This document shows, piece by piece, positions 2,533 through 37,511 of a DNA stretch of 40,965 nt; positions within the stretch are counted from its first letter, which is position 1, and the number at the start of each line of letters is the position of its first letter. The stretch is from a virus. The stretch lies in the UHGV virus genome UHGV-1351066; one strand, 5' to 3'. The notes below the pieces were generated by a model, which was not told where the DNA came from, made no database searches, and saw only the letters and a list, made by a program, of their open reading frames with translations. Both the position numbers and the translations under genes were made by a program.

Positions 2533-3156
2533 ATGTCATCAATCCGCTTAACTACGAGAATGAAAGAGGAAATCGCTCGTAACGCTTTAATTAAGTCTGG
2601 GGTTTTCACTGAACTTGAAGAAGTAACAAAGTTAAAGAACCAGCTTGCACTTGACGCCAGAGTTATTGCGTTTGGCGGTAAAAAGAAAACTGAGGAAGTG
2701 GATCAGTTATCATCCAAGTTAGTAGCTATAAGTGAAGAACTTGAAAAACTGGGATGTTCATTTTACTCATACGATGTTCGTTCTACATCAATTTATCTGA
2801 CTGTATCTGGCAGAAGAGTTGGCTGGCATTCATACGGAAAAGACGGCAACGGTGAAGATATATTGCTCCCCACCCCAGAAAAAGATAAATGCATGTTTGA
2901 CGCAGAACACGAAATAACAAAAAGGTTTGATGAAATCTGCGCATTGCAACAAAAACTTGAAGCCAAGAAAAAGGATATCAAATCAAATGTATGGGCTGCT
3001 TTGAACTCAGTCACAACAGTTAAGCGACTTATTGAAGTTTGGCCTGAAAGCAAAGAGTTGCTACCAAAAGAAGCAGATAAAGCAAGTACAGCACTTCCTG
3101 CTTTACGGGTAGAAGATTTGAATAAGATGATTGGACTTCCTTCCGAGGCCGCATAG
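2533..3156 (+). CDS. hypothetical protein, early-left accessory gene
   Basis: 207 aa from ATG at 2533 (GAGGAA RBS); no recognisable motifs; followed by a terminator. Confidence 0.5.
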   Translation: MSSIRLTTRMKEEIARNALIKSGVFTELEEVTKLKNQLALDARVIAFGGKKKTEEVDQLSSKLVAISEELEKLGCSFYSYDVRSTSIYLTVSGRRVGWHSYGKDGNGEDILLPTPEKDKCMFDAEHEITKRFDEICALQQKLEAKKKDIKSNVWAALNSVTTVKRLIEVWPESKELLPKEADKASTALPALRVEDLNKMIGLPSEAA

Positions 3157-4029: not shown

Positions 4030-4182
4030 ATGCGCAATGAAATAGCCATCAATCACCAGATGCTTCGTGCAGCACAAAACAAAGCAGTAATAGCCAGATT
4101 TATTGGTGATTCAAAAATGTGGCTTGAAGCAAATAAAGCGATGAAATCAGCTATCAATCTTCCGTGGTATCGCAGGAAATGA
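4030..4182 (+). CDS. small hypothetical protein (50 aa)
   Basis: ORF with GGAGG upstream; below the ORF-track size cutoff; function unknown. Confidence 0.3.
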   Translation: MRNEIAINHQMLRAAQNKAVIARFIGDSKMWLEANKAMKSAINLPWYRRK

Positions 4183-4263
4183 GTTTTACAGATAACTGGT
4201 CAGACGAAGAGTTCATTCGTCAGATGAACAAAATGCTCAATCAGCACAAAGAACAGGAGAAAG

Positions 4264-4575
4264 ATGATGATTCTGACTCTGAATGATAAGCGTGAAATAT
4301 CGCAAATAATCGCAAGTTTTACTGATGAAGATTACGAACGAATCAACAGTGAAGTTGATCGCCTCTGCAAACGTTGCGACCCAATAAGCGAAATGCTTCG
4401 CTCATATAAACCAGATGAACACACTAAGGACGCTATCGACTGGCTGGAAGATGATGACTGTAACTATCAGGAAAAAGCCGCTGAATGGTTCTGGGATGCA
4501 ATAACCGAAAGAGTTAAGGCTGAATATGCCTTCGCAATATTCAAACGCAGACACATTTTTGGAGAAGCAGCATGA
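4264..4575 (+). CDS. hypothetical protein (103 aa), acidic
   Basis: GGAGA RBS; stop overlaps recT start. Confidence 0.5.
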   Translation: MMILTLNDKREISQIIASFTDEDYERINSEVDRLCKRCDPISEMLRSYKPDEHTKDAIDWLEDDDCNYQEKAAEWFWDAITERVKAEYAFAIFKRRHIFGEAA

Positions 4576-11397: not shown

Positions 11398-13872
11398 CTA
11401 CATTGCCATTAATATAAACATAGCCAATTCGTCATAACGAATTCCGTAGCGTCCACCTGCTTTTTTTACAAGAATCATATTTCCTGTTTTATATTGAGAA
11501 TAAATTTTCTCACCTGTATCAGGATCTGTGCTCTCTTCAGTTATCACCTCTTCATCCCATACGTCTGGCCATTCATCGTAACACCAAAAAGCATATTGCT
11601 CAGGATTTAAACCATGTTTTCTAAGAATATCTCCTACGGTTTGAGCGCCAACTCCAAAATGATACCTTGATAACTCCAATCCTTTAAAATTAATCGACTC
11701 ATTAAACCTGAACTTGCATATAATTCCCTTTATTTCCAGCGCAGCATCACGCTCTGCCTGAGTAATGTCATATATTGTTTTAAGTGTTTCATCTGATGTG
11801 CTTATAGTCCCGGATGCAGAATAAATCTGAGCCCATCTAAATGATGGTGCACCAAGAGATTTGCTGTTATCAATAATTGGTGAAAAATTACCTTTAATGG
11901 CAATATTTCCAGAGTCGCCGAATATATTAATAACTGCAGAGTCATCACCATGGTTTTTTACGCTTAAGTTTCTTGATGAAATATTTATATCTTTGTTATA
12001 TCCACTAATATTAATCCATCTTTTACCATCAATGTGATACCCGTAAATATTTCCGTTTGATTGTTCGTTAGATGACTCTCTAAGAACAATAGCATCTACT
12101 CCAGACGACCATTGTATTTTTGTATCTGTAGGCCTCCAGTTCTTTATAATGAACGAACCATCAGTAAACTCCGTTTTTATTTGTCTATTGTCTACAAATG
12201 CGTCTCTTGGTTTAAACTCACTTGTGTTAACGCTGCTCTGAAGATCAGAAGCAAAAAATCTAAGATTTCCTGTATAACCCTGAGTCTCGGTCAGGTTATA
12301 CGCAATCATAATTCCATTTTCAAACTCAGATGATGTTATTTTAACATCACGGCAATCACCAAAAATGCAATTTCCTTTATCAAATGTTGTTTGAGCTTTG
12401 AATTTATCAAACCTTAAATTACGAACAGGGAAACCATCAACCTCTAATGCAAAGGATGCAGGAAGGCCAAAGTATTCTGATGGCTTACCTGATGTATGAT
12501 CAAGAGTAGTGGCTACTGTATTCTCAAAAACAGTCCCGCTAAAATTATTACCAATTGACGGAAACCTGATTACACTTATTGTACCTTGTATTTCAGGAGA
12601 AATACCAGATAGTGTGATGTTAGTTCCATCAAATGATGCATCTGAATACGTATATACTGATTCACTGCCAGCAATTTTAAACTGTTTAACTGAAGTTATT
12701 CTCATCGACTTTTTATGTTTAAATGTCACTGAGCTTTCAGTATTACTTACAAGATCAATCTGAGGGCTATTCCTTATCGCGATTCCTGACTGGACATAAA
12801 CGTTATTAAAGTGCGTTTTTTCAGGATTTCCCTTCATTGAAAGGCTCCCGTCATTTTCTGTCAGTAGTAGTCCTTTTACCCTCCAATAGCCGACAATCTG
12901 TACGTTATCAATAACTGAATCACAGCTATCGTATACATGCAACCCTATATCCCAGTTATCACCCAATGAATAAGAATCAGGGTTATTGTATCCTTCAATA
13001 CCATTTTTACTTACCATTATTCTCAGATTGCGTAACTGTGATGCCCTGTTGATACTAACAGCTACGCTCATGGCTTTTGGTGTAGCAGGAGTAACACCTA
13101 CAGAATCTTCATTCGTAAACTCAGTGAACTTACAAGATATCCCTTCAACAATTTTAACTGGTCTTTCATTAGAGATGTTAAAAAAATATTTGTTTTTTTC
13201 TCCATCACCAGTAAATACAAGATGGGTTCCTTTACTCCAACTTTTTAATAATCTTTCAGGCGCTGGTCTATATGTGTCCCAATAATCAATGCCAGATCCA
13301 ACCAGTGAACACCCCTCAGGAATGTTAATATTCTTCTTGATGATGCATATTCCTTCAGGAATTGTTATAACCGACCTTCCAGAGTTTAAAGCTTTAATAA
13401 AAGCATCTGAATCATCTGTTACCCCATCTATTTTTGCTCCCCACCCTCTAACATCTCCACAATCTCTCCATCGTGCCATCTGCAACTCAGGATATTTTTT
13501 AGCGCCATCTGGATCTTCTAATTGCGGCCGTAGCTGATCGGGGTCATACTTCAGCACATTAGGAAAATAGAACTGCTGCGCACCATACGCATCGTATACA
13601 GCCATAGAATGGCCTTGCACAGTTACGAACTTGGCAATCTGTCCGTTATATACCGGATATCCAGCAGCGTTAATGATGATTGGCTGCGAAACAGGAACGT
13701 GAGAACCGTCTTCATTCTCCACATAAACCTGAATCTGGTTTTCAGGATTTACCGGATCCGTGTCAATTTTACCGATATAAATTTTTCCATTGGCTACGGC
13801 TTTAAAAGAACGAGCCATAGTGAAGAGTTGCGAAGGCATACTCACTACAACATTGGCTGTAATGTCTGTCAT
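11398..13872 (-). CDS. tailspike: P22 gp9-like head-binding N-terminus, divergent receptor domain, C-terminal intramolecular chaperone (peptidase S74-like)
   Basis: N-terminal ~110 aa nearly collinear with P22 tailspike ('[11 protein letters not shown]…[11 protein letters not shown]…VLKYDPDQ'); C-terminal 'TSDETLKT…' resembles self-cleaving chaperone domains. Confidence 0.8.
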
Positions 13873-14050: not shown

Positions 14051-14974
14051 TCAGTAGTTATGTACTGAAGGAGGTAATTCTTTATTCTTAAGTCTCATCC
14101 ATGCGGAAAGATTCGTTGGTCCGTCTGGCTCATTGATATCAACATCTCGTGTGTGGTTTATTAAAACGTCTCTCGCCATTCCGATAACATACGAGAATTC
14201 ATGACCGTAGTCGTAGCATCTGCCGGAATAGTTCGATTGAATTTGTTTTAATGCCGGATACAGTTCGCGGAATAATGCCTGTGAGCGGTTGGCATAATCC
14301 CATAGCCATACAAGGCTGTTTGCTTCTTTTGCAGAAAGCTCGTTGGTTTTCTTCTCTTGTTTGCCAATGAACTCACCTTCAAGCGGAACTCGAGCTGCAA
14401 GTGACAGTGCTTCGGTAAACTGCTCCTCACTGATTTCTTTGTATGAACATCCAAAATGGGATTTCAGTGACGACCACATGGTGATCATCGCCTTAGCCTG
14501 TTTTTCCTTTGGCAGAGACTGACCGCGACTCATGACGAGTTGTTTAATGGCTTCCTGCTGTTCAGTGGTGATTTTACCCGGCAACGCCTTTTTAGCTTTG
14601 CGTGGGTTAACTACATGGCCTTTAGTCCAGTACTCGTATAGCACATCGTCACACTCTTCTTGATACTGGATTACATTGTCGCGGATTTCAGGGCGGACTT
14701 TGTTAGGGCTGATGGTTTGCAACCAGCCATTCAGTTTACGTAAAGCAAGGCAAATCATGTTCTGCACACCGCCAACTGAAGGTATTGCGATTTCCACAAT
14801 ACCTTTAGCAAATCTTTGTTTTAACTTTGTAAACTGTGAAGCCCAATCCATACCCATTCCCTCAACGATAGGTTTCATTGGGGTGTACGGCTCACCGTTG
14901 TGATTGACAACATAAAGCTCTGCGCCGTGGAATGGTACATTGATAGTAGATACTGCTGTTGCTATACTTTTCAT
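14051..14974 (-). CDS. ant: antirepressor Ant
   Basis: 307 aa; N-terminus and position downstream of arc match P22 Ant. Confidence 0.75.
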   Translation of the reverse strand: MKSIATAVSTINVPFHGAELYVVNHNGEPYTPMKPIVEGMGMDWASQFTKLKQRFAKGIVEIAIPSVGGVQNMICLALRKLNGWLQTISPNKVRPEIRDNVIQYQEECDDVLYEYWTKGHVVNPRKAKKALPGKITTEQQEAIKQLVMSRGQSLPKEKQAKAMITMWSSLKSHFGCSYKEISEEQFTEALSLAARVPLEGEFIGKQEKKTNELSAKEANSLVWLWDYANRSQALFRELYPALKQIQSNYSGRCYDYGHEFSYVIGMARDVLINHTRDVDINEPDGPTNLSAWMRLKNKELPPSVHNY

Positions 14975-15037
14975 GTCGTTAATTCCTATGCGTGGTTTTA
15001 CGATACCGAAGCCCTGACTGTTACCGCAGTTGGGGCT

Positions 15038-15259
15038 TCACTGTTTTTGTAAGTCACTGTAGTTATAAAGCCACTGACCACTCATTCTTGCTTTGATTGA
15101 CTCTACTGAATCACGGCAAGGAATGATTCCACCTGACATCATTCTGATCTCCGTAAATTCACCGCTCCTTATCGACTCAATGCCATTAACGTTAACTAAA
15201 GATTTACCTCTACCAAGTGTATTCTCATAGCCAATCTCATCAACCTCAATAAACCTCAT
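15038..15259 (-). CDS. hypothetical protein inserted between arc and ant
   Basis: 73 aa; ATG overlaps the arc stop (ATGA); AGAGGGG RBS inside arc 3' end; no recognised family. Confidence 0.5.
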   Translation of the reverse strand: MRFIEVDEIGYENTLGRGKSLVNVNGIESIRSGEFTEIRMMSGGIIPCRDSVESIKARMSGQWLYNYSDLQKQ

Positions 15260-15414
15260 ACCGTTATCCCCTCTCTCTTCAGGCTGTCCAATACTCGCTT
15301 GTAAATCTCAGAGTTAACAGATCGCTCATTCTCTTTGGCTACCTTGCGCACCAAATCCAATACTTCTTTAGGCATCCGCAAATTAAACTGCGGCATTTTT
15401 CTTGCACCTTGCAT
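15256..15414 (-). CDS. arc: Arc repressor (ribbon-helix-helix)
   Basis: 52 aa 'MQGARKMPQFNLRMPKEVLDLVRKVAKENERSVNSEIYKRVLDSLKREG…' closely matches P22 Arc; not in ORF track (<60 aa). Confidence 0.8.
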   Translation of the reverse strand: MQGARKMPQFNLRMPKEVLDLVRKVAKENERSVNSEIYKRVLDSLKREGITV

Positions 15415-15501
15415 ACCCTCTCCCAATCAATGAACCACCGTGGTTCAATTGAGAATGTACTATCACCGTTATAGACTGTCAAGAAAAAACATGGTGATAA
15501 A
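15415..15501. promoter_or_regulatory. Pant/Pmnt divergent promoter region with operator-like palindromes
   Basis: GAACCAC-c-GTGGTTC (15432-15446) resembles the P22 mnt operator core; ATAGA-containing element nearby resembles the arc operator. Confidence 0.55.
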
Positions 15502-15750
15502 ATGTCCAGAGAAGACCCACAATTTAAGTTGCGCCTTCCAGCAGAGTTAAAAGCAAAGTTAGACCAAAGGGCAAAAATGAATGGTCGGTCTATCAATTCT
15601 GAACTAGTTCAGATCGTACAAAAGGCGTTATCTGAACCATCACCGATTGCAGGCTATCGAGACGAAGCTGAACGCTTGGCTGATCAGCAAGCAGAAATTG
15701 TTAAGAAGATGGTGTTTGAAACCCTGAAAAAAATGTACGAGACCAGATAG
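15502..15750 (+). CDS. mnt: Mnt repressor
   Basis: 82 aa, near-collinear with P22 Mnt ('…NGRSINSELVQIVQKALSEPSPIAGYRDEAERLADQQ…'). Confidence 0.85.
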   Translation: MSREDPQFKLRLPAELKAKLDQRAKMNGRSINSELVQIVQKALSEPSPIAGYRDEAERLADQQAEIVKKMVFETLKKMYETR

Positions 15751-15792: not shown

Positions 15793-16392
15793 GTGATTGA
15801 GATAGGCGTTATGGCCATCCTGAATCAAGAGCCAGGAAAAATTGAAAACGTTTTTTCTGACATATCAACATCTATCGAGCGTTCAATTTCAGACTTTGAT
15901 CGCAGTCATAGCGGCTCTTTGTCTAAAAAACAGGCTTCTGAAGCTCTTAGCAAGATCTACTGCGTTATGTCACCTGTAGAGGAAGTTTGCAAAAAGTACA
16001 TTACATTCATTGACATATTAAGTAATGGTACGGAAGAAGATATTTCCTCACTTGATATTCAACATGACGATGTAGATATGTTGAACGATCAAATATCTAA
16101 GCTTGATTATGGTATCGCGAAACTGTTGTATACCTTCTTCATCGCTGAGAACAGCGATGCGTGGAAGCCCCATATGTCAACTCTTACAACAATGAAAAAC
16201 CACTCAATAAATACTTTTATAGAATACAAAAGGCTAACTATGGGGCTTGTGACGCTAGCAATGCAGCACATACCACTATCATATGCTGAACCTGAAGAGT
16301 TCACTGAAGAAGAGTTGGCTTCATTCAAGAAATCAGTTGAAGATTCACATAAAAGATTTGGCATGGAAGCACCAAAATGGAAAACCGCATAA
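15793..16392 (+). CDS. hypothetical protein (199 aa), first gene of accessory cassette at the sieA position
   Basis: GTG start after AAGG (or ATG at 15811); no recognised domain; 3' end overlaps the next gene by 16 nt. Confidence 0.55.
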   Translation: MIEIGVMAILNQEPGKIENVFSDISTSIERSISDFDRSHSGSLSKKQASEALSKIYCVMSPVEEVCKKYITFIDILSNGTEEDISSLDIQHDDVDMLNDQISKLDYGIAKLLYTFFIAENSDAWKPHMSTLTTMKNHSINTFIEYKRLTMGLVTLAMQHIPLSYAEPEEFTEEELASFKKSVEDSHKRFGMEAPKWKTA

Positions 16393-16796
16393 GCATTGTT
16401 GTAGATGCAGCGGCTGGACCATTAGAACAATACTTTGCGAAGGCTCTTGCAAACTACAAAAACAGAGGCACCGTTTCAGCTTATCTTGGTAAGATTGGTG
16501 GGTTTGAGAGAAACCATCACGCCGTCTTATCGGGAATTTACAAGTCGCACATCAGGATCCCTGGAGTAGATGATCCTTGGTTAAAAACAACGCCAATACA
16601 TCGTAGAGTTAGCGATAACTTTTTGATATTTGCGGTACACAACACATATCCAATTCATATCCAGATCATTGCTATCATTAAACCTGATGGTCATGAGAAG
16701 GTAAAAAAACTATTGCCAGCCATCATTGATATAACTGAAAAAAGATTCCAATCTCTAAATGAGAGGGAGCTTAACTCGTTGATTTCATACAAATAA
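16377..16796 (+). CDS. YafO-like toxin homologue (putative ribosome-dependent mRNA interferase)
   Basis: C-terminal core 'HIRIPGVDDPW…FLIFAVHNTYPIHIQIIAIIKPDGHEK' resembles E. coli YafO as recalled from memory. Confidence 0.5.
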   Translation: MENRISIVVDAAAGPLEQYFAKALANYKNRGTVSAYLGKIGGFERNHHAVLSGIYKSHIRIPGVDDPWLKTTPIHRRVSDNFLIFAVHNTYPIHIQIIAIIKPDGHEKVKKLLPAIIDITEKRFQSLNERELNSLISYK

Positions 16797-16818
16797 AATA
16801 TCAACTAAGGAGGTTGGT

Positions 16819-17046
16819 GTGAAGCGATGGTTCCTCATAATTACTGTTTTCGCGATCATTTACACTATTTTCCCTGCATTAAAAGCACCAATGCAAATAA
16901 TTTCGCTAGCAATAATTGCAATTGGTGCTTTCATTGCAGTAGCCGTACTTGTGTTTAAGGTTTTAAAGTTTTTAGTTTGGCTATCAAAAGATGATGGATG
17001 CAAAGTTCATCAAGAAAAAGAAGGCAAAATAACCAAAGTTGACTAA
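16819..17046 (+). CDS. small membrane protein with two predicted TM helices
   Basis: 75 aa; strong AAGGAGG RBS before GTG; two hydrophobic stretches; stop overlaps the convergent gp16-like stop. Confidence 0.55.
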   Translation: MKRWFLIITVFAIIYTIFPALKAPMQIISLAIIAIGAFIAVAVLVFKVLKFLVWLSKDDGCKVHQEKEGKITKVD

Positions 17047-19166
17047 CTGTCACTAGCGAGCCATGTAATAATCCCCGTGCGGGCAATGGTTTTTGCTTCA
17101 TCTGTTGATAAGGTTTTCTCCCATCTCTTAAATGCCCCAGATTGCATCAGTTTCCTTTCTATTACGCGTCTCACTTCTGCTCTGTCTACTGGTGCGTTTT
17201 GCAGGCGAAATAGCATTGATTTAAACTCAGGAGAAGACAGTAGAGCATCAGCAGCCTTTATCCTGCTTGTTTTCCCTGACATCAATGCTGACGTTATCAC
17301 CCCTGTTGCACCTACACCAGGAAGACCAGATAAGCTTGTAATACCTTCCGCCGCAGCGGCTTTTGAGGCTATTCCATAAATTTTTGCGAGACTACCCTTT
17401 TCTTTCAGAAAGTTATTAACTTGCTGATCCACAAGACTACTAGCATACTGCTTACCAGTATTGAGTCTATTCATAGCCTTAGCTGCTTGATAAATCGTAT
17501 CAAGGCGCTTTGATGCATCTGTGCCAATAGCATCACGGAGAGCCTTCATATTGGCCCCATTGCGTGACATTCCGTTATACCATTTTACAAATCCATCAAC
17601 TCCTAATTGCTGACCAGGTGATTTGGCATAGCTGGTAAATGCTTTATTCATTGAGGTGAGCGCAACTTCCTGCCGCATATCCTTTGGAATCGACTTCATT
17701 AATTGCCTAAAGTCGCCACCGTTTCCTTTTGCCATATTAACAACAGCACTTTCAACTTTTGGAATTGCTGATTGCTGAAGTTTTCTACCCAAGACGGTTA
17801 CAGCATCATCTTCAATGGATTTTCGTTTTTTTACCAACTCCTTACCAAGCGTCCATAATTCCCCTGCGCCATATTTTTCTGCGACAGCCTGTTGGTCATC
17901 TGTTATGGCTGCATATAACTTTTTAAGAACACCTGTTTCTTCATCCTTGAATGGACCAGAGCCTTTGCCAATAGCTTGTCCAACCTGCTTTCTAGCGAGA
18001 TCTAAACGACCATACGTTGGCAAGGTGTTTGGATCAAGTCGGTTCAATGTCCGCTTCATTATTGGAGATAATTCATCAATTCCACCTATGTCATCAGCAA
18101 AATCCTCTAAAAAATTCAATGTATTAGTTGCCTCAATCCGGTCTCTTACAGGAACCTTTTCGGCAATTTTGTTGTAGATGTTATCTGACTGATTTTGTAA
18201 TGATGAAATGGTTTTATCAAAATTATCTGCAAGCCTGTCAGAAACCAGTTGCTTATCAAGGCTTCCCCCAAATGAAGTTATCATTTCATCAGCTTTTCTT
18301 CCTAATTCAGTAATAAAACGCTTATGCGCCTCACTAATCTCTGTTCCAGGGAGACTTGCCACTGCATTATCAAGAGCCCTGACAGCAGGATTATTAGAGA
18401 TCATGCCTGGAGTGGCATAATTTTCCAGTTCTAGCTCACGAATAGCATTTATCGCGTTAAAATCAGGATTAACTTCATCGGCGAAATCTTGAATAGCTCG
18501 TTGCCCGCCGATAAATTTATTGTCCATTGCGCCAGCAGCTTTCTTTAACGTTGCTTTAGATGATTTACTACCCATCCCTACGGATGAGCGATAAATATCT
18601 CCGGCACTATTTTTAATTTTTCCTGCAATCTTCCCAAGCGCTGGACCAACAATCTCGGCTACAGGGCCAGCCACAGCGCCAATAGCAGCTCCGGAAGCAA
18701 CATCGCTATTTGTTCCATTGGCTACAATAGCCCCTTCTCCAGCACCAAGCCCTGCGGCGGCAGCCAGCCTTGCCGCCCCTTTCGGAACCTGAGAAATAAT
18801 CCCACCACCACTAACAAATGGCGCTGCTTGTCCAACAAACTCACCAACATCTTGTGCGGTTGATGGTTTTGCCGCTAACTTCTGCTGTAGAGACTGAATT
18901 GCGGCTTGCTCTTCTGGTGTCATATCCTGAAATAGACCAACACCTTTACCAACATCCATCAATCCACTGAGAACGCCATACATAAAACGGTCAAAGCCGT
19001 TAGCATTATTAACAACATTTTCCTGTCTGGAATTTTCCTCTGGTGAAACCAAAGGTGATTGCTGCTGCTCTGGTTGGGAATCAAGCACAAAACCATCAGG
19101 AAGCTGTGAGTTATCAGGCTGATTATCGAGAACAAATCCTTCGGGTAAACCTACATCGGTTGCCAT
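17043..19166 (-). CDS. ejection/internal virion protein (P22 gp16-like)
   Basis: Last gene of the late operon in P22 order; Gly/Ala-rich central region. Confidence 0.6.
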
Positions 19167-36818: not shown

Positions 36819-37430
36819 TTATCTGTTTTTAACACGCTTTCGAGTCCTTTTAGATTTTTCCTTAAGATATTCCGCAAGTTTATCCTCATCATTATTAAAT
36901 TGAGATAAAAGCTCATGCTCGCAATTAAGTGCTTTACTCGCATAAGTTCCATATAGTTTCTTTCTTGCTAGTGCTGCTATGAATGCTGCATCTTCTTTGC
37001 TATCGAAATACCCTAACGATATTGTCTTATTTTTATAACCAACATAAGACTTCCACCTGCCAGTTGGCTTATACCAAGACACTCCAATTGCACCGGATGT
37101 GTTTAATCTATTCCCTACAATGTTTCTTGCATTCTGCTCTTCTGTTGCCAGTCTTAGATTTGAAATCCTATTGTCAAGTCTGTTCCCATTTACATGATCA
37201 ATAAACTTAGGAGGCCATTTTTTGTATACATAGAACCAAGCAAGTCTATGCGCATAATACAAAACATTATTTATGCTAATGCATATATAACCACCACTAA
37301 CACCTCCAGCAATACTACCTTTTACTCTTACTACTGAATTTGTTTTTAGCCATTTAAATATTCCTGTTTCTGAGTCATATGATAATGTTGACAGAAGCTC
37401 ATCGTGATCAATTAGTTTTTTTATTCGCAT
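36819..37430 (-). CDS. HNH homing endonuclease with AP2-like domain (second copy)
   Basis: 'IDHVNGNRLDNRISNLRLAT' HNH motif; 'GVSWYKPTGRWKSYVGYKNKTISLGYF' AP2-like; paralogous in architecture to the 3399-3911 gene. Confidence 0.8.
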   Translation of the reverse strand: MRIKKLIDHDELLSTLSYDSETGIFKWLKTNSVVRVKGSIAGGVSGGYICISINNVLYYAHRLAWFYVYKKWPPKFIDHVNGNRLDNRISNLRLATEEQNARNIVGNRLNTSGAIGVSWYKPTGRWKSYVGYKNKTISLGYFDSKEDAAFIAALARKKLYGTYASKALNCEHELLSQFNNDEDKLAEYLKEKSKRTRKRVKNR

Positions 37431-37511
37431 AAAGAATATACTTAATAATATATACAGTAAGAACCATTAGTAACGATAACCCTGCTATTAGCTCAGTGAT
37501 GTAGATGGTCA

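Follow-up and report, generated by a model that had tools for sequence, protein, structure and literature searches.

Among toxin–antitoxin (TA) systems of type II are mix-and-match families with modular antitoxins, of which the Panacea-domain antitoxins are an example, and the E. coli toxin YafO is a ribosome-associated mRNA interferase. YafO has been placed among the BECR-fold mRNases of the RelE/ParE superfamily, with the gene order antitoxin then toxin (PMC11980606). The YafO super-family has been paired with Phd and with further antitoxin candidates obtained through guilt by association (Leplae et al. 2011, PMC3141249), and in the SLING survey of E. coli the YafO_toxin family had 13 partner clusters, 8% of them known (PMC10790755). 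In phage P22, SieA is a protein of ~162 amino acids (aa) with three transmembrane (TM) segments and the motif FxRYPxEAxxFNK, and the legend of Fig. 4 in the same source counts the region in which its gene lies among those that the prophage expresses (PMC10883804). Here we describe a locus in UHGV-1351066, the genome, 40,965 nucleotides (nt) long, of a P22-like E. coli phage of the Lederbergvirus type, referred to as the window and oriented with the virion genes on the minus strand, where three co-directional open reading frames (ORF1, ORF2 and ORF3; 15793–17046, plus strand) lie between mnt and a gene-16 homologue. A sequence-only reading had described this layout accurately and had taken the three genes for a single cassette. 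We find that ORF1 and ORF2 are likely to form a type II TA-like module that is bicistronic, autonomous and horizontally mobile, in which expression in phages would run via a repressor promoter and the toxin would be neutralised through the tail of its antitoxin, with ORF3 as an unrelated neighbour.

ORF1 and ORF2 are kept together across phages and genera

ORF1 (15793–16392, plus strand; 199 aa, GTG start), the proposed antitoxin gene, and ORF2 (16377–16796, plus strand; 139 aa), which encodes a basic YafO-family protein and proposed mRNA endoribonuclease toxin, overlap by 16 nt (16377–16392), as had been read from the sequence. The same pair occurs in phage CUS-3 as ECRS218_0007 and ECRS218_0008 (99% protein identity, both annotated hypothetical), is carried intact by 44 of the 5426 complete E. 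coli genomes, UTI89, IHE3034, APEC O18 and NU14 among them, and was found in seven IMG/VR contigs. In four Pectobacterium species it stands alone in the core chromosome between ABC-permease genes and gcvP, and it does so too in two Xenorhabdus species, there flanked by slt and an ABC-F gene. These copies show identities of 42–67% (ORF1) and 54–75% (ORF2) and keep the 16-nt overlap, as in E. coli. The solitary occurrence in Pectobacterium and Xenorhabdus indicates a self-contained two-gene unit, and since both genes are kept intact across genera they are real genes rather than chance ORFs.

Each ORF2 homologue found, down to 37% identity, had an ORF1-family gene directly upstream, either overlapping it or a few nt apart. 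The loci behind this statement are CUS-3, the E. coli prophages, the seven IMG/VR contigs, the four Pectobacterium and two Xenorhabdus species, the lambdoid prophages L016, L017 and L020, the locus L018 and a Flyfo siphovirus; a genome scan with a narrower YafO-like alignment returned five loci. In the Flyfo siphovirus (Tbat2_3), the 37%-identical ORF2 homologue is annotated as a YafO toxin, and the 190-aa protein encoded upstream of it is recognised by the ORF1 profile (hhalign probability 98.3%) and carries the type A tail described below. Neighbourhoods were also inspected for ten divergent ORF1-family clusters, and in all full-length family members examined a small basic protein was encoded downstream, with the two genes overlapping by at most 17 nt or separated by no more than 7 nt. 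The pairing, whose co-occurrence the sequence-only reading had put forward as a check on its proposal, was observed at all examined loci.

ORF2 is a putative toxin of the YafO family

ORF2 (phrog_1651) scores 45.1 bits with the Pfam family YafO_toxin (PF13957; cut-off 25; E 1.1e-11), with residues 26–122 aligned to profile positions 2–98 of 101. The YafO likeness suspected from the sequence alone therefore holds up in a profile search, except that it had been placed in a C-terminal core and the match spans nearly the whole protein. PF13957 is also precomputed on ORF2 homologues, and proteins identical to ORF2 are named "type II toxin-antitoxin system YafO family toxin" in RefSeq. An alignment of divergent ORF2-subfamily members with K-12 YafO leaves F43, E44, R45, H58, R77, P103 and H106 invariant, which is consistent with a retained active site in which these residues may serve catalysis. 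The predicted protein is basic (isoelectric point, pI, 9.6) and ORF1 is strongly acidic (pI 4.9), a charge pattern that is classic for TA pairs.

ORF1 combines a predicted helical bundle with a tail that tracks the partner

ORF1 (phrog_18235, function unknown) had been said to lack a recognisable domain, and no match to it was found in Pfam or NCBIfam. Its family is very small: an exhaustive HMMER search with the family profile across 1.84 billion representative proteins yielded 18 clusters only, while a word-indexed search for relatives returned members from E. coli, Salmonella and Pectobacterium and one 29%-identical outlier. The AlphaFold2 (AF2) model (pLDDT 79, pTM 0.66) predicts helices at residues 14–38, 45–78, 91–119 and 125–157, then an acidic stretch of low confidence and, at 172–188, a C-terminal helix. 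The modelled layout is thus a four-helix bundle (~19–157), a low-confidence acidic linker (158–171) and a C-terminal helix with tail (172–196). YafN, Phd and other known antitoxins were considered as relatives and rejected, as no similarity was detected in Pfam or NCBIfam and hhalign against YafN gave a probability of 0.2%, in agreement with the earlier statement that the upstream partner is unrelated to YafN. A weak match to PtuB in PADLOC (E 0.005, 14.5 bits) was taken as noise arising from helical composition.

Members of the ORF1 family fall into two C-terminal types, and each type is tied to its own partner. Where the tail is of type A, with the pattern F.EE..SFKK.VE.SHK..G.E.PKW that ORF1 itself carries, the next gene encodes a Pfam YafO_toxin protein in every case (L006, L016, L017, L018/L019 and L020/L021). 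Where it is of type B (HP.WV.SG.DFV.W), the next gene in every case encodes an unrelated protein of 123–130 aa, phrog_5954, which is basic and carries the motifs LPGRNKPSTGVS, HYHIG and FGDWTS; these partners lie at L005 2065–2457, L015 889–1266, L022 801–1172, L024 2333–2716 and L023 881–1123. The phrog_5954 protein gave no match in Pfam or the PDB, and a relationship to YafO was rejected (hhalign probability 0.2% against the YafO alignment), leaving it as a candidate for a new toxin family. Within ORF1, the bundle and the tail point to different ancestries. Compared with type B proteins (P0016, P0027, P0029 and P0030), the ORF1 of the window is 29–36% identical in the bundle and 20–25% in the tail, and compared with distant type A proteins (P0035 and P0037–P0040) it is 14–21% identical in the bundle and 30–74% in the tail. 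The tail therefore tracks the partner type and the bundle does not, which points to the tail as a partner-specific and presumably toxin-binding element, and to ORF1 as presumably a modular antitoxin. This discordance is the strongest computational evidence obtained here for both assignments.

The same observation bears on the possibility that ORF1 is no antitoxin at all, for example because ORF2 is a YafO-like RNA-binding protein that has degenerated and is not toxic, with ORF1 as its helical adaptor or chaperone. We consider this improbable. In ORF2 the positions invariant with E. coli YafO are preserved, the arrangement of an acidic upstream and a basic downstream protein that are translationally coupled is a hallmark of type II TA systems, and a scaffold that pairs, by way of a swapped tail, with a second unrelated basic protein fits mix-and-match antitoxins better than it fits a dedicated chaperone.

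ORF3 occupies an exchangeable slot and is not part of the module

ORF3 (16819–17046, plus strand; 75 aa; phrog_7294, function unknown) agrees with its earlier description as a two-helix membrane protein with a strong ribosome-binding site (RBS): it has two hydrophobic, predicted TM segments at residues ~4–22 and 26–55, and TAAGGAGGT stands five nt before its GTG start. It was rejected as a SieA, being 75 aa long with two hydrophobic segments and having no FxRYPxEAxxFNK motif. An imperfect inverted repeat lies inside the gene (16874–16939; 29-nt arms, 79% complementary, 8-nt spacer), covering the part that encodes the loop and the second hydrophobic segment; it may be due to chance or form an RNA hairpin.

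Three co-directional, tightly packed genes, with a gap of 22 nt between ORF2 and ORF3 that holds no terminator-like site, could be taken for one integrated three-component TA or abortive-infection system in which the membrane protein is the third partner, such as an effector or anchor. The distribution of the genes largely refutes this and makes it very improbable, and the three-gene cassette of the sequence-only reading falls with it. ORF3 was absent at all other loci of the pair, that is, from CUS-3, the 44 E. coli genomes, the seven IMG/VR contigs, Pectobacterium and Xenorhabdus, and in the last two genera the pair has no third gene at all. ORF3 also exists apart from the pair: phages EC.P3 and E212 carry it, as do 34 other E. 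coli genomes; across the 5426 complete genomes the pair was thus found in 44 and ORF3 in 34, with the two adjacent in none. A query spanning the ORF2–ORF3 junction matched one half or the other in 78 complete E. coli genomes and crossed the junction in 0. Other pair-carrying phages have at least three unrelated genes in place of ORF3, all behind the same RBS: hkcB in CUS-3 (107 aa, an N-terminal hydrophobic segment and a coiled coil), a gene for a 140-aa soluble protein in strain MS14385 and one for a signal-peptide protein in STEC383.

The boundary of this exchange is sharp. In an alignment of five loci, a 19-nt junction comprising the Shine–Dalgarno sequence and the start codon, AACTAAGGAGGTTGGTGTG, is identical through the GTG, and the sequences are unrelated beyond it (window 16803–16821, plus strand; L001 ~4217–4235; L002 ~4167–4185; L003 ~4404–4422; L004 ~3001–3019). 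Four or more unrelated genes of the slot beside gene 16 have these same 19 nt in front of them, which places the recombination boundaries exactly at the start codon and defines a cargo slot with a fixed RBS; that similarity ends at this codon in all five loci explains why the ORF2–ORF3 junction is absent elsewhere. ORF3 is accordingly an independent moron in a sieA-equivalent position, outside the ORF1–ORF2 module.

One annotation in this slot deserves a remark. The RefSeq start of the third gene in STEC383 (L003 4441–4809) looks too far downstream, as the conserved Shine–Dalgarno sequence and GTG lie ~20 nt upstream, and the upstream start would add MKRFLAA... and so complete a typical signal peptide.

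Proposed mechanism and points against it

We propose that ORF2 would act as a divergent YafO-family (RelE/ParE-superfamily) endoribonuclease that stops translation by cleaving mRNA, and that ORF1 would be its cognate antitoxin, translationally coupled to it via the 16-nt overlap. The basic ORF2 protein would be neutralised mainly by the C-terminal helix and tail of ORF1 (~170–196), which a flexible acidic linker would join to a four-helix bundle of separate ancestry. Expression in lysogens would come from the upstream repressor promoter, that of mnt here (Pmnt) and that of the cI-like gene in the lambdoid relatives, and the RNase would be set free when ORF1 is lost or sequestered in the course of infection. 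Given the strong acidity of ORF1 and the lack of any recognisable DNA-binding domain in it, the simplest reading is that the pair in phages would rely on the upstream repressor promoter. The gap of 42 nt between mnt and ORF1 holds no terminator-like site, and mnt is the context of ORF1–ORF2 and the probable source of transcription into them. It is not a conserved part of the module, as the chromosomal copies of the pair have no mnt.

Several results weigh against this reading. ORF2 fails the NCBIfam equivalog model for YafO (PRK09885), scoring 14.2 bits where 153 are required, and shares 19% identity with E. coli K-12 YafO (BLASTP E 0.025), so that, judged from these comparisons, it is best placed in a distant YafO subfamily rather than as an orthologue of E. 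coli YafO. Its AF2 model, built from a shallow alignment, reached a pLDDT of 42 and did not confirm a RelE-like fold, and a sequence search found no solved YafO structure. Most antitoxins are about half the size of ORF1; beyond the missing DNA-binding domain, ORF1 has no detectable likeness to known antitoxins, and its fold is a generic helical bundle. No defence model of PADLOC-DB v2 was matched by the cassette, ORF2 having no match of any kind and ORF1 and ORF3 weak ones only (for ORF3, a 4TM effector at E 0.05). Promoter and terminator scans of the window, Pectobacterium and Xenorhabdus gave counts at the level of shuffled sequence or within ~2.5 standard deviations of it, and yielded no informative site. 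An RNA antitoxin or other RNA in the cassette was also considered and rejected, Rfam finding none there.

Sites in phages and the possible role of the pair

In phages and prophages the pair lies behind mnt (window, CUS-3, L005 and L014), directly behind an S24-peptidase cI-like repressor in lambdoid prophages (L016 3785–6058 and L017 475–2291), in the nin-type region of L020 and between tail genes in L031. Genes at the first two of these sites would be transcribed together with the lysogeny repressors. The position directly behind the cI-like repressor in L016 and L017 is one that we take to be the rexAB position of lambda. Placement behind mnt or cI-like repressors and beside the sieA slot suggests a lysogen-expressed abortive-infection or exclusion role, and we regard such a prophage-borne role in abortive infection or superinfection defence as plausible and as the foremost candidate, if with a chance below even. 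The proposal of a non-canonical TA or abortive-infection module, made from the sequence alone, therefore survives for the ORF1–ORF2 pair, which behaves in a TA-like manner in an accessory slot, and does not extend to ORF3.

Prophage addiction is the alternative role. The pair would then be a purely selfish, addictive TA system with no part in anti-phage defence, one that stabilises the prophage or simply persists in the chromosome. Solitary copies between housekeeping genes in Pectobacterium and Xenorhabdus speak for it, as do the lack of a PADLOC match and the fact that canonical yafNO does not count among the known defence systems (PMC11980606); the solitary copies in chromosomes and the absent PADLOC matches are equally compatible with plain addiction. 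Repeated placement in lysogen-expressed prophage slots that are typical of exclusion and defence genes, namely behind mnt beside the sieA slot and behind cI-like repressors, is circumstantial evidence to the contrary, and on the whole we think a purely addictive pair somewhat unlikely.

Returning to the modular TA-like unit that we favour, a more far-reaching version can be formulated. The ORF1 bundle might be a sensing or regulatory module whose exchangeable tails fit two or more unrelated toxins, among them the YafO-like RNase and phrog_5954, the modules behind mnt and cI might constitute a new family of prophage abortive-infection systems, and phrog_5954 might be a new toxin family. We offer this as speculation and would not expect all of it to hold.

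The surrounding region and its P22 counterpart

The closest whole-genome relatives of the window are phiv205-1, E212, CUS-3 and HK620. In the P22 record (BK000583), gene 16, sieA, orf59a, mnt, arc, ant and gene 9 follow the same relative order and orientation as their counterparts in the window, and the interval beside mnt reads mnt, orf59a, terminator, PsieA and sieA, all transcribed away from arc. This gene order places ORF1 and ORF2 at the orf59a position directly behind mnt and ORF3 at the sieA position beside gene 16, so that the sieA position assigned to all three genes by the sequence-only reading applies to ORF3 and not to the pair.

Proceeding along the window, the tailspike gene (11398–13872) and ant (14051–14974) lie on the minus strand, followed by the sar antisense RNA on the plus strand (14976–15042; Rfam RF00262, 77.7 bits), which sits between ant and a 73-aa ORF, in a place corresponding to that in P22 immI, and was the sole Rfam match, outside the cassette. 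The minus-strand 73-aa ORF (15038–15259) lies between arc and ant at a spot where P22 has no counterpart; a hypothetical protein is annotated at this spot in related prophages (L003 2639–2860, and a 270-nt one in L002 and L004). Then come arc (15256–15426, minus strand) and the mnt repressor gene (15502–15750, plus strand; Pfam Arc 68 bits, Repressor_Mnt 55 bits), and beyond the three ORFs the gene for a gene-16-type DNA-transfer protein of 707 aa (17043–19166, minus strand).

The region of the three ORFs had been judged AT-rich by eye, and its GC content of 38.0%, against 46.0% for the whole window, indeed falls in the 3rd percentile of sliding windows of the same size. Other low-GC patches are the receptor-binding part of the tailspike (window 11500–13500, ~36–38% GC) and a block at 37000–37500 (34% GC), which are probably further mosaic or acquired segments.

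Novelty and implications

The suggestion that the locus holds an undescribed system stands in part. RefSeq already names ORF2 as a YafO family toxin, and earlier surveys reported that most partners of YafO_toxin proteins are unknown (PMC10790755, PMC3141249), while non-Phd partners of YafO-family toxins were known as a class; it is the ORF1 family itself that lacks a description, and our literature search found no paper on this family, on the modularity of its tail or on the placement of the pair in phages. The advance is therefore incremental, and this is not a categorically new system. If confirmed, it would provide a new antitoxin family and a natural example of antitoxin modularity, in which a helical scaffold has its tail swapped to suit each of two unrelated toxins, and it would give a function to two hypothetical genes of CUS-3 and of the P22-like prophages of extraintestinal pathogenic E. 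coli (ExPEC; UTI89, IHE3034 and APEC O18). The map of the P22-like immI region is also refined, with two independent cargo positions, one behind mnt and one a sieA-type slot with fixed RBS and start codon, and this map should be useful in mining prophages for exclusion and defence genes.

Comparison with known systems

The CUS-3 copy of the pair lies in the same place behind mnt and differs in its third gene. The wider setting resembles the sieA/orf59a region of P22 immI in that the slot between mnt and gene 16 is transcribed in the mnt direction and that a small membrane protein, ORF3 here and SieA in P22, is encoded beside gene 16; however, the genes share no homology with those of P22, and ORF1 and ORF2 are cytoplasmic and unrelated to orf59a.

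Of the described TA systems, E. coli yafN–yafO shares with ORF1–ORF2 the Pfam family of the toxin, the antitoxin–toxin order with tight coupling and the combination of an acidic antitoxin with a basic toxin. In contrast to yafN–yafO, the toxin is divergent and outside the equivalog model, ORF1 is a 199-aa protein with a predicted helical bundle and no detected DNA-binding domain rather than a YafN of the Phd/YefM type, and the module is phage-borne and lies outside the dinB operon. A second likeness is with the mix-and-match type II TA systems. The ORF1 scaffold differs from theirs in being a separate, very small family that has no Pfam model and for which two partner families have been seen; yet, like their modular antitoxins, it joins one scaffold to unrelated putative toxins by way of a short, swappable terminal segment (PMC3141249).

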